Assembly (NCBI GenBank): GCA_964631205.1
Contig: CAZVWU010000002.1
Location: forward strand, 69,031-133,030
DNA length: 64,000 bases
Direction: 5' to 3'
From: an uncultured archaeon
GTDB lineage: Archaea > Aenigmatarchaeota > Aenigmatarchaeia > QMZP01 > JACQNV01
Shown here: positions 42,607 through 50,117 of the stretch, in pieces
Layout of the letters: each line of letters begins with the position of its first letter
Position numbering within the stretch: position 1 is the stretch's first letter
Made by a program: the position numbers and the translations under genes
The notes under the pieces: generated by a model
Told to the model about the DNA's origin: nothing
The model's input: only the letters and a program-made list of their open reading frames with translations
Database searches by the model: none

Positions 42607-42984
42607 CTAACCACTTCTTTTAGGCATCTGTCCGGATCCTTTCATCTCCTTTGCTCTGGATAACTCTCTTTTAAAAAACTCTTTTTTCAGATAGCGCGCA
42701 ACACTAACAGCCAACCTTGCTGCAACTTCTCTACCGTCCCCAGACTTGTAACCCCCTTCTTCAAGGTGGTTCTCTGTAAATTCAAAAAGCATCCTCATCT
42801 CTTCAGGCTCTACGCCAACATCAATGCAGCCATCTGTTAAAATCTGCGCATACGGAACAAGACGAAACTCATCCACATCACCGCTTACTACCCTGTAAAT
42901 ACGAAGCAGATCATCAACAGCTTCCCCTGGCGTGATAGAAGAATTATAACACCCGAAAATCCTGTTTAATTCATGTTCATCCAT
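42607..42984 (-). CDS. hypothetical protein (125 aa)
   Basis: ORF only; no motif recognised. Confidence 0.4.
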   Translation of the reverse strand: MDEHELNRIFGCYNSSITPGEAVDDLLRIYRVVSGDVDEFRLVPYAQILTDGCIDVGVEPEEMRMLFEFTENHLEEGGYKSGDGREVAARLAVSVARYLKKEFFKRELSRAKEMKGSGQMPKRSG

Positions 42985-43099: not shown

Positions 43100-44632
43100 A
43101 TGACATTCCAACCCCTCTACAAAGGCGGCTCGACTTCCAGCAACAGCCTTATAATCGGAGATCCAGAAGGCTCTGTTGGAATTGTTACCCTCTGGAGCAA
43201 AGCCAAAGAAATAGCCAAAAAAATAGACCCAAAAAATTATTGTGTAATCGGCCAGCTATTTTCAGCTGAGAGGGGCCTTGATTTCCTTGCAAGAAACCTA
43301 CTCGCAAACCCACAGATAACCAACCTTATTGTAACCGGCGTCGACTTCTCAAAATCCGGGATTGTTTTGATTGATTTTTTCCAAAATGGCTTTGAAAAAG
43401 GCAAGGCAGACACAACAGAAAAGGATTGCTGGCGCGTGAAAAGCCAGTACGCGGGCTATATAGATCTGGACATACCTGAAGAGGTTTTGAACAATCTCCG
43501 TGAAACAGCAAATATAATTAAAGCGCCCAATATAGAAACCTTTGATTTTTCCACTTTGCAAAAACCCAGCAAAGCAAGAAGTAAAAATATTTTTCTCAAA
43601 AAAGAAGAGTCTATAAAACAGTATGTCGGCGAATACACAGGCCATATTGTGAGAGGCAAAACAATTGCAGAAGCCTGGCTGAAAATCCTGGACACCATTT
43701 TAAAATTTGGCAGGGAATCCGGGACACACTATGACGAAAAACAAAAGGAGCTTGTAAACCTACTTTCAATAATTTCTGAAGAAGACCCGAACAACTTTTA
43801 TATTCCAAGCTTTTTGCCTGGCGATGAACAGCACATAAAGGAATACATCCCTAGGATAACACGCGACCTTCCAGGAGGGATCCACAAAAACGAATATACG
43901 TATGGATCCAGAATGAGATCCTGGTTTGGCACAGACCAGGTAAAAAACGCAGTGGCCAAACTTGTAAGGGAGCCAATATCCCGCGCAGTTGTGATAAGCC
44001 TCTGGGACACTGTAAAAGACCTGACATTAGGCGGCTCGCCCTGCTTGAATCACATCTGGTTCAGGGTCGCAGACAACAAGCTCCACATGACAGCAATCTT
44101 CAGATCCCATGACATGTTCGAAGGATATCCAGAAAACGCTTTTGGCCTGCGATCCCTTCAGGAAGAAATCCGACAAGGAATTGTTTCAGGCCTAAAAGAA
44201 AAGGGCGAAGAAATGGATTTGAAATTAGGCGACCTGATGATACTCTCCCAGTCAGCGCACATATACAAAGACTGCTGGGAAACATCCCAAATTACAGTGC
44301 AAAAATACCTCACCGGGAAATACACATACCATTTGGCAGAGCTTGATCCGCGCGGAAATTTTATAATCACAGTTGATTTCGGCTTGGGGGATATTGTAGT
44401 CGAACACACATCCCAAACCAATGAGAAAATCGGCGAGTACAGGGCAAAATCTGCAGCCGAGCTCCGTGATATTTTAACAAAAGAAAAAGTGATCTCTCTT
44501 ATCCCGCATGCGTTGGACTTGGGTATGGAGCTCATGAAGGCAGAAATTGCTCTAAAAACAGGCTCCCATTACAACCAGGACCAGCCGCTGGATTTTAATG
44601 AATTGAGGAATTTGCTAAAAGAAAATCACTGA
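43100..44632 (+). CDS. thyA: thymidylate synthase (ThyA-type) fused to an N-terminal MtrA-like domain
   Basis: The C-terminal half has GGSPCLNHIWFRV...AIFRSHDMFEGYPENAFGL...SQSAHIY, which parallels ThyA PCH..QFYV / RS.D..LG.PFN. The N-terminal ~150 aa (AERGLDFLARNLLANPQITNLIVTGVD..FQNGF) parallels MtrA ([22 protein letters not shown]..HKNGV). Confidence 0.7.
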   Translation: MTFQPLYKGGSTSSNSLIIGDPEGSVGIVTLWSKAKEIAKKIDPKNYCVIGQLFSAERGLDFLARNLLANPQITNLIVTGVDFSKSGIVLIDFFQNGFEKGKADTTEKDCWRVKSQYAGYIDLDIPEEVLNNLRETANIIKAPNIETFDFSTLQKPSKARSKNIFLKKEESIKQYVGEYTGHIVRGKTIAEAWLKILDTILKFGRESGTHYDEKQKELVNLLSIISEEDPNNFYIPSFLPGDEQHIKEYIPRITRDLPGGIHKNEYTYGSRMRSWFGTDQVKNAVAKLVREPISRAVVISLWDTVKDLTLGGSPCLNHIWFRVADNKLHMTAIFRSHDMFEGYPENAFGLRSLQEEIRQGIVSGLKEKGEEMDLKLGDLMILSQSAHIYKDCWETSQITVQKYLTGKYTYHLAELDPRGNFIITVDFGLGDIVVEHTSQTNEKIGEYRAKSAAELRDILTKEKVISLIPHALDLGMELMKAEIALKTGSHYNQDQPLDFNELRNLLKENH

Positions 44633-49514: not shown

Positions 49515-50117
49515 ATGATCCTCCCAGACCATGAGATTAAAAAATACCTTGCTGAAGGCAAGATTGTTGTTGAACCTTTGACTGATCCAGAAGTGCAGAT
49601 CCAGGCAGCGTGGATAGACCTTAGGCTTGGGGATGAATTCAAGGTCTTCAAGCACACACAGGAAGCTTTTATAGACTCGAAAAACCCAAAAGAATATACA
49701 GAGGACATGGTATCAAACGGGAACCCGATAATCCTTCATCCAAAAGAGTTCATGCTCGGGATAACAAAAGAAACAATAAAGATGCCAGACGACCTTGTAG
49801 GCTACATTGATGGGCGATCCTCCCTAGGTCGGCTTGGGGTAACAGCCCACATAACCTCTGCTTGGGTTGATCCAGGGTTCCAAGGCAGGCTTGTACTTGA
49901 AATCTCTAACCTCGGCAAAATGCCTGTGACGATATATCCGGACATGAGAGTTGCCAAACTTTTATTTTTCAAATTAACCTCGCCTTCAGAAAGGCCTTAC
50001 AATGTAAGGAACTCCAAATACCAAAACCAGAGCAAGGTGACAGAAAGCAAAATCCATACAGACAAAAACATCGAGTGGTTCACAAAGGTATATAAGGATA
50101 CAGTTTCAAAAAGCTAG
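49515..50117 (+). CDS. dcd: dCTP deaminase
   Basis: ILPDHEIKKYL, GYIDGRSSLGRLG and VLEISN motifs. Confidence 0.85.
   Translation: MILPDHEIKKYLAEGKIVVEPLTDPEVQIQAAWIDLRLGDEFKVFKHTQEAFIDSKNPKEYTEDMVSNGNPIILHPKEFMLGITKETIKMPDDLVGYIDGRSSLGRLGVTAHITSAWVDPGFQGRLVLEISNLGKMPVTIYPDMRVAKLLFFKLTSPSERPYNVRNSKYQNQSKVTESKIHTDKNIEWFTKVYKDTVSKS

Follow-up and report, generated by a model that had tools for sequence, protein, structure and literature searches.

A three-domain protein with a thymidylate synthase core, an MtrA-like domain and DUF4346 in DPANN archaea and cyanobacteria

Results

Gene and domain layout

The window analysed here, the whole of a 64,000-nucleotide stretch from an uncultured archaeon (assembly GCA_964631205.1, contig CAZVWU010000002.1), contains a gene for a three-domain protein (P0001), in which a thymidylate synthase (TS) core of the ThyA type is flanked by an N-terminal domain with the fold of the methyltransferase subunit MtrA and by a C-terminal PterinBD-DUF4346 domain (Table 1). 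An earlier reading, made from the letters of the DNA (the sequence-only reading), had proposed two domains, an MtrA-like part followed by ThyA in the C-terminal ~300 residues. Both parts and the ThyA motifs are present, but the core is central and spans about 220 residues, and the third domain had been overlooked. In the Pfam scan suggested by that reading, PF00303 matches residues 266-403 above its cut-off (49.8 bits against 24.3), while PF04208 gives an E-value of 2.2e-4 for residues 18-102 but stays below its cut-off (21.4 bits against 25). PF14251 matches as well, with an E-value of 6.2e-18 and 65.8 bits (cut-off 29.6), covering profile positions 1-86 of 86.

The N-terminus of P0001 lines up with the start positions of 47 homologues. 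Alignment of 48 sequences revealed that all three domains are conserved, with the N-terminal domain as conserved as the catalytic core. A full-length AlphaFold2 (AF2) model, computed with 48 homologues as input, has a mean predicted local distance difference test score (pLDDT) of 89.3 and a predicted template modelling score (pTM) of 0.72. A scan of the locus for bacterial promoters and terminators gave none above chance.

Table 1. Positions of the gene, its domains and neighbouring features in the window
Feature	Position	Strand	Basis
Whole gene, 510-residue three-domain thymidylate synthase (P0001)	43100..44632	+	Open frame with ATG start and stop
N-terminal MtrA-fold domain, residues 1-161, without the cobalt-ligand His84 or Glu54	43100..43582	+	NF002126, PF04208, 5LAA, VIA-align
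Linker, residues 162-182, poorly conserved	43583..43645	+	pLDDT down to 69 at residues 171-180; variable alignment columns (A1)
Short archaeal-type ThyA core, residues 183-403	43646..44308	+	TIGR03283, PF00303, Foldseek, VIA-align
Cys315 codon (catalytic nucleophile; E. coli Cys146), in GGSPCLNH	44042..44044	+	HMMER alignments to solved ThyA
C-terminal PterinBD-DUF4346 domain, residues 415-494	44342..44581	+	PF14251
dCTP deaminase (Dcd) gene, likely dUMP supply	49515..50117	+	PF22769, E 2.4e-46
PF22769 match within Dcd (G000:C2:118548-119003)	49518..49973		PF22769
DUF1512 gene upstream of P0001	41304..42590	+	
125-residue open reading frame, divergent from the TS gene	42607..42984	-	No Pfam match

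The catalytic core

TIGR03283 is the best-scoring model for the core (E 2.1e-36), aligning residues 183-393 to profile positions 2-198 of 201. Foldseek comparison with ThyA structures gave an E-value of 5.4e-14 and a target template modelling (TM) score of 0.65. With VIA-align, residues 179-401 match structures of the TS superfamily at Z 18-23; for Brucella ThyA, Z is 18.9 with about 200 residues aligned and the root-mean-square deviation (rmsd) at 2.7 Å.

The signatures quoted in the sequence-only reading were recovered, namely SPCLNH with Cys315 and RSHDMFEGYPEN with R335, S336, D338 and N346. HMMER alignments to solved ThyA and the family alignment place them, in E. coli numbering, as C146=C315, R166=R335, S167=S336, D169=D338 and N177=N346, and further matches are Y94=Y268, E58=E217, H207=H387, Y209=Y389 and R126=R295. 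P314-C315 aligns to the Pro-Cys of the solved enzymes, the Cys is nearly invariant in the 48 homologues, and N346 and D338 are invariant. Three positions are altered in the alignments to solved ThyA: R127 is Ala296, H147 is Leu316 and L143 is Gly312. Among the four phosphate-binding arginines (R21, R166 and, from the partner subunit, R126 and R127), R166 and R126 are thus kept and R127 is replaced, while no residue could be assigned to R21; the cyanobacterial three-domain forms lack the equivalents of both R126 and R127 (IDAASAVMSLWD). The core stops about 15 residues past the SAHIY motif; DUF4346 starts about 25 residues past it, after one helix and a short linker.

A 2026 study of TS homologues from phages (PMC13326640) gives the meaning of three positions: Asn at 177 marks the use of dUMP, Asp or Asn at 169 marks dependence on folate or flavin, respectively, and hydroxymethylases are marked by an acidic residue at 143. 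With N346, D338 and Gly312, P0001 points to thymidylate synthesis at all three positions.

The N-terminal domain

The sequence-only reading had taken the N-terminus for an MtrA homologue, and this holds in both sequence and fold. NF002126 matches residues 14-181 with an E-value of 1.3e-12 (47.7 bits, under its cut-off of 161), TIGR01111 gives 19.4 bits (under 249), and a phmmer search finds PDB entry 5LAA at E 5.8e-5. The model of residues 1-161 superposes on 5laa_B, an MtrA homologue with bound cobalamin, with Z 15.7 and an rmsd of 2.5 Å over 142 of 159 residues at 22% identity (VIA-align); the best unrelated structure reaches Z 6.6.

In MtrA, His84 is the lower axial ligand of cobalt, Glu54 is its hydrogen-bond partner, and Lys52 touches the nucleotide tail of cobalamin (Wagner et al. 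2016, PMC4915002). HMMER alignment to 5LAA revealed that these positions are Ile88, Ala56 and Phe54 in P0001, and all three residues are replaced in every fused form examined. No conserved His occurs at the His84 site in 48 DPANN or 4 cyanobacterial sequences. The loss of the cobamide-ligating His claimed in the sequence-only reading is thereby borne out and extends to its Glu partner. A candidate equivalent of Glu54, E57 of P0001, was ruled out by the same alignment, which places Glu54 at A56. Since both His84 and Glu54 are lost, MtrA-style His-on binding of cobamide is unlikely.

Fifteen residues of the domain are invariant over the 48 sequences (G51, S55, G59, D61, R65, N70, G80, D82, S84, S86, G87, F93, F94, G97 and W111), and most of these (G51, S55, G59, D61, R65, G80, D82, S84, S86 and G87) lie in the loops after β2 and β3. 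The module of the fused form thus looks like one that keeps a strongly conserved ligand pocket in the cobalamin loops of MtrA. In place of the Gly-His of MtrA, the cyanobacterial forms (L089, L080, L075, L053) have a conserved Cys-Gln-Cys (SGSCQCLLDFF).

The C-terminal domain

Folded alone, the C-terminal domain has a pLDDT of 89.9 and consists of a three-stranded sheet followed by helices. No convincing solved relative was found in the PDB, the best Foldseek E-value being 0.12 and the best VIA-align Z 6.7; the weak matches in common arrangement are to PSRP-3 and EVH1/PH-like domains (Z ≤ 6.7). A search among short proteins with the domain gave one match. The proteins that carry DUF4346 are very diverse and include a dihydropteroate synthase (DHPS)-like protein (TIGR00284), ferredoxin, MtrA and stand-alone open reading frames (ORFs).

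Stand-alone DUF4346 ORFs of 122-162 residues lie 1-5 kb from FolA in three genomes (G040:C1:58047-59688, G174:C11:5875-10532 and G239:C40:8744-13931), and the second of these is also near a canonical ThyA. The genome of the window encodes a second DUF4346 protein outside the window, a 199-residue ferredoxin (Fer4_15)-DUF4346 fusion (L001:1165-1761 = G000:C2:35284-35880), whose gene is convergent with that of a 503-residue B12-binding radical SAM protein (L007:11897-13408). Of the 301 genomes of the phylum, three (G000, G275 and G095) encode a full-length ferredoxin-DUF4346 protein.

Host genome and gene neighbourhood

The assembly that contains the window is 0.90 Mb in size, 94% complete and Aenigmatarchaeota-like, and the absences given for it refer to profile and homology searches. 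The closest homologues of P0001 are from Aenigmatarchaeota, Woesearchaeota and Nanoarchaeota. P0001 is the single PF00303 match in the genome. The searches did not find ThyX (PF02511), FolA-type dihydrofolate reductase (DHFR, PF00186), RibD_C, a homologue of an ORF of the DHFR family in the sister genome G119, Pterin_bind/DHPS (PF00809), methylenetetrahydrofolate reductase (MTHFR) or a second MtrA. Serine hydroxymethyltransferase (SHMT, L007:2827-4167) and FolD (L007:4171-5025) are encoded side by side, and a B12-binding radical SAM enzyme is also encoded. The organism thus runs a folate-type one-carbon (C1) cycle, with a cofactor that it is probably unable to make itself. Adjoining SHMT and FolD is a gene for a CofE-like F420-0:γ-glutamyl ligase (PF01996, L007:5014-5763, minus strand), which might glutamylate a scavenged pterin cofactor.

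The Dcd gene is about 5 kb downstream of P0001 and not in the same operon in the window, and no conserved partner gene was found around P0001 there. A search with PF02195 for a ParB/sulfiredoxin-fold partner was negative in the genome of the window and in 6 of 7 relatives; the single match, in G110, is on another contig than the fusion gene of that genome, and P0001 has no such gene at its flanks. The DUF1512 gene upstream also precedes a split form of the system, described below, in the genome G001 (L009:269-1480).

Distribution across archaea and cyanobacteria

A whole-protein search retrieved 948 relatives; of the best 120, almost every one has the same domain set. Full-length homologues occur in DPANN archaea and cyanobacteria at 40-88% identity; a search with the N-terminal domain alone gave 417 clusters (50% identity), the majority with lengths of 450-550 residues, and a scan with one genome per species gave 399 loci. 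Full-length cyanobacterial forms (about 40% identity over residues 3-495) are found in Microcystis, Nostoc, Phormidium, Scytonema, Pseudanabaena, Snowella and others, and RefSeq labels them plainly as thymidylate synthase.

Gene neighbourhoods were read by hand at nine loci. The start of a dCMP deaminase gene overlaps the stop of the three-domain gene in Phormidium, Hormoscilla, Nostoc and Scytonema, a Dcd-like gene comes next in the latter two, and in Microcystis the thymidylate kinase gene (tmk) ends 5 bp upstream. Among DPANN relatives, G035 and G110 have Dcd directly next to the fusion gene, and in one protein (P0060, 698 residues) a dCTP deaminase domain is added after DUF4346.

In a sample of 121 cyanobacterial genomes, each has exactly one type of TS, and the counts sum to 121. 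ThyX is present in 98 genomes, one of which has a strong FolA match; the three-domain form in 21, five with such a match; and canonical full-length ThyA in two, both with one. In a second cyanobacterial set, 11 of 12 carriers of the three-domain form have no strong FolA match. This non-overlap of TS types across the 121 genomes is the strongest evidence that the three-domain form is a working thymidylate synthase. The absence of FolA is nearly general in cyanobacteria and is not specific to the three-domain enzyme. The sequence-only reading had raised tetrahydromethanopterin as a possible C1 carrier, which the evidence does not support: the genome of the window has folate-type SHMT and FolD, and cyanobacteria that use folate have the same three-domain enzyme as their only thymidylate synthase.

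The genomes of the phylum of the window are related to one another, and counts over them are descriptive rather than statistical tests. A fused or split version of the system is present in 122 of 301 genomes, ThyX in 155, and a DHFR_1 match in 37, of which 23 are strong. Of the 35 genomes in family f4, 29 have the system and none has DHFR. Complementarity of TS types is looser in this phylum than in cyanobacteria. A sister subfamily (about 30% identity, with PPCL, RSHD and both partner arginines; L104:1390-2784 in G012) coexists with ThyX in 8 of 11 genomes of family f3. In the genome G265, a minus-strand operon (L100 = G265:C48:3900-8200) encodes a 485-residue three-domain TS with intact motifs, a 138-residue ORF of no family, a 275-residue ThyA and a 172-residue FolA.

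Several variants depart from the common layout. P0165 (862 residues) has its best MtrA-like match from about residue 311 and contains two stretches like the N-terminal domain, one at 8-154 (phmmer), and P0153 and P0163 (385-400 residues) have a degenerate middle. In P0124, a metagenomic protein of 452 residues that is also found in Tara Oceans data, the TS core has no catalytic Cys and is also without YTYG-R and the RS of RSxD. Either P0124 is a pseudo-enzyme or the outer module has a function of its own.

A split version in related archaea

At least 10 genomes of the phylum lack the fusion and have two adjacent genes instead (pairs P0281/P0282 and P0283/P0284; L008, L009). The first encodes an MtrA-DUF4346 protein of 264-284 residues, which passes NF002126 with 181.8 bits (cut-off 161) and in which the meander motif is retained along with Gly-His and the Glu of the ligand pair. 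The second encodes a ThyA-like protein of 258-283 residues with TIGR03283 as its best model; the Cys and both partner arginines are present, and KTND stands where the fusion has RSHD. Alignment of the two arrangements (A3) revealed that the TS core of the fusion falls in the linker between MtrA and DUF4346 of the split protein. The split pair and the fusion thus link the same three parts in two independent gene arrangements, and the cobalt ligand is lost in the fused one only. A 390-residue MtrA model, NF002128, was considered as a combination of MtrA, an additional part and DUF4346, and was rejected since the split proteins put the extra part at the N-terminus.

Discussion

A probable thymidylate synthase with an accessory module

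Judged from its domains and catalytic signatures, its standing as the only TS of the genome, the pathway genes and the distribution of the family, P0001 is very probably a functional dTMP-forming enzyme, and that the fusion is conserved argues that it is functional. The suggestion that its two accessory domains constitute a module for cofactor handling, though preferred to the alternatives, is considerably more tentative. As a whole, we favour the explanation that P0001 is a genuine thymidylate synthase with an accessory module that handles the pterin cofactor, and we consider it somewhat probable.

Which compound donates the C1 unit, which pterin is released and what the two accessory domains do are inferences. 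In the pathway proposed, Cys315 would attack C6 of dUMP, most likely supplied by Dcd, and the activated C5 would receive a methylene group from a folate-type cofactor loaded by SHMT, giving dTMP. The module of the fused form would no longer serve as an MtrA-type carrier of methyl-cobamide. DUF4346, placed where classical ThyA has its folate-closing C-terminal segment, would bind the pterin or close over it, and the N-terminal domain would provide a second ligand- or phosphate-binding surface. It may also help to build the site to which the dimer partner contributes in classical ThyA. Of the two partner arginines, R127 is Ala in P0001, and the cyanobacterial forms have lost both R126 and R127.

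Several observations weigh against this explanation. With TIGR03283 the core scores 125.3 bits, under the equivalog cut-off of 174.55, and all MtrA models score under their curated cut-offs on P0001. Within the core, R127 is Ala and the equivalent of L143 is Gly. The Pfam name of DUF4346 and its fusion partners are the two things that point to pterin binding by this domain. P0124 keeps a well-conserved MtrA-like domain and DUF4346 around a dead core, which suggests a separate task for the module in addition to any support of TS catalysis. Finally, the coexistence of family members with other TS types in family f3 and in G265 means that not every member need be a housekeeping TS.

Alternative explanations

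The module could instead spare DHFR, either by re-reducing dihydrofolate or by feeding electrons so that tetrahydrofolate is released, and FolA would then not be needed. Both principles have precedents, as ThyX uses flavin so that tetrahydrofolate is released, and the DHFR-TS fusions of protozoa and plants re-reduce dihydrofolate. We regard this explanation as unlikely. The searches of the window's genome for PF00186, RibD_C and the G119-type reductase were negative, and with no DHPS found, folate is probably scavenged, so that classical ThyA chemistry would consume it stoichiometrically. The pattern in family f4 agrees with it, as do the 16 of 21 cyanobacterial carriers without a strong FolA match, compared with neither of the two canonical-ThyA genomes. 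The absence of FolA loses force, however, in view of the ThyX-type cyanobacteria, 97 of 98 of which also lack FolA yet must reduce the dihydrofolate that they make de novo, so that an unrecognised reductase exists in cyanobacteria anyway. FolA is in fact commoner with the three-domain form (5/21) than with ThyX (1/98), as expected if dihydrofolate is produced, and the fusion, canonical ThyA and FolA share one operon in G265. The ferredoxin-DUF4346 fusion in the same genome would fit a redox role, but such fusions are rare. The survival of the accessory domains around the dead core of P0124 also favours this explanation; against it, the N-terminal domain lacks a nucleotide-binding glycine motif and has a corrinoid protein as its only strong structural relative.

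Equally doubtful is the explanation that the extra domains are a scaffold for oligomerisation, stability of the minimal core or docking, with textbook ThyA chemistry and an unrecognised reductase elsewhere in the genome. The loss of the cobalt-ligand pair and the lack of a conserved partner gene around P0001 in the window are compatible with this, the occurrence of DUF4346 on very different proteins fits a docking domain, and the lost partner-subunit arginines hint at a changed quaternary structure. A scaffold would account less readily for the N-terminal domain, which is as conserved as the catalytic core and whose invariant residues, lying in the cobalamin-holding loops of MtrA, resemble a ligand pocket rather than an interface.

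A corrinoid relay is improbable. Here the N-terminal domain would bind cobamide in a His-off manner, and methyl-cob(III)amide would methylate the Cys-activated dUMP, or cob(I) would act as the reductant, giving a B12-dependent TS. His-off corrinoid proteins exist, the corrinoid iron-sulfur protein being an example. In the split version a bona fide member of the MtrA subfamily, with both His and Glu, is paired with a ThyA-like gene; the genome of the window encodes a B12-binding radical SAM enzyme, so cobamides are handled, and the ferredoxin-DUF4346 protein could be a reductive activator. In the fused forms examined, however, H84, E54 and K52 are always replaced, and we rate a methyl-corrinoid relay low because the genome searches found neither MTHFR nor a Pterin_bind/MtrH-type methyltransferase for supply or delivery of the methyl group. 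P0001 also retains D169, the mark of folate dependence (PMC13326640), along with other classical ThyA signatures.

Least probable of all is that P0001 belongs to the TS superfamily but modifies C5 of pyrimidines in another way, for example as a hydroxymethylase or hydroxylase: the core does match the flavin-dependent dCMP monooxygenase 9iqc (Z 22.7) and the CMP hydroxymethylase MilA (Z 20.5) better than ThyA (18.9), and ThyX or canonical ThyA occurs alongside some members of the family, but Asn346 is of the dUMP rather than the dCMP type, Asp338 of the folate rather than the flavin type, position 143 is Gly rather than Asp or Glu, P0001 is the only TS candidate in its genome, the family is strictly complementary to ThyX and canonical ThyA in the 121 cyanobacteria, and its genes lie beside tmk, dCMP deaminase and dcd.

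Significance

Two classes of thymidylate synthase are in textbooks, ThyA, which needs FolA, and ThyX. It is conceivable, though we doubt it, that the three-domain proteins represent a third functional class, in which a ThyA core joined to a module of corrinoid-carrier origin, supplying or recycling reducing power or the C1 cofactor, would make dTMP without a separate DHFR; the split, His-containing form would then be ancestral and truly cobamide-dependent.

The sequence-only reading had left open whether the architecture is catalogued. It is, since Pfam domains are precomputed on such proteins and RefSeq names them, but a literature search (DUF4346, MtrA with TS, DPANN, cyanobacterial thyA/thyX) found no paper that describes or tests it, and it is absent from papers that deal with thymidylate metabolism in Asgard archaea, with the comparative genomics of folate and with MtrA-like proteins. 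As for the N-terminal part being a known standard extension with a defined role, it is standard in a large family, but no role has been defined for it.

The interest of the three-domain form lies mainly in its being widespread and the sole TS in cultured cyanobacteria. About one sixth of the sampled cyanobacteria rely on it, including the bloom-formers Microcystis and Nostoc, as do many ultra-small archaea. Cyanobacteria pose a long-standing "missing dihydrofolate reductase" problem (PMC1971073), part of which could be settled by the role of the extra domains, most carriers being without FolA. That role could reveal a new route for closing the folate cycle, and would tie a protein fold of methanogenesis-type corrinoid chemistry to DNA precursor synthesis. 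Because cultured carriers and simple complementation assays exist, the function is directly testable.

Comparison with known systems

Classical ThyA (EC 2.1.1.45, PF00303; E. coli, L. casei) shares with the P0001 core the fold and the catalytic and signature residues, and the pathway neighbours are the same in the P0001 family (dcd, dCMP deaminase, tmk). The E. coli enzyme has 264 residues and ends in the classical C-terminal closing segment, whereas the P0001 core, at about 220 residues, lacks this segment. P0001 further differs in the changes of R127 to Ala and H147 to Leu and in the added MtrA-fold and DUF4346 domains, and the three-domain form usually occurs without FolA.

The methanogen-type short TS (TIGR03283, MJ0757 type) is the closest family model to the core, yet the relation is not that of an equivalog. 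It is a stand-alone protein of about 200 residues, whereas the P0001 core is nested between two other domains in a genome with folate-type rather than methanopterin-type enzymes.

The bifunctional DHFR-TS of protozoa and plants, in which an N-terminal α/β nucleotide-type domain precedes TS, is an analogy for a possible cofactor-recycling fusion. Its structural match to P0001 is through the TS half alone; P0001 has no PF00186 match, and its N-terminal domain is of the MtrA type. ThyX (PF02511) occupies the same niche as the three-domain form, to which it is the strict alternative in the 121 cyanobacteria, and both occur mostly without FolA; the folds are unrelated.

MtrA and its cytoplasmic homologues (PF04208; 5LAA, 5L8X) have the same Rossmann-like fold as the N-terminal domain, whose conserved segments are the β2-α2 and β3-α3 loops and the meander segment of MtrA. 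P0001 differs in the replacement of His84, Glu54 and Lys52, in having no membrane helix and in scoring under the cut-off of every MtrA profile, and a search of its 94%-complete genome with the PF00809 profile found no mtrH-type Pterin_bind gene.

Nearest in composition is the split pair, which has the same three domains and DUF4346 motifs as P0001 and, at L009, the same DUF1512 upstream neighbour as in the window. Unlike P0001, it is encoded by two genes, and its MtrA part scores over the NF002126 cut-off, with both His and Glu retained.

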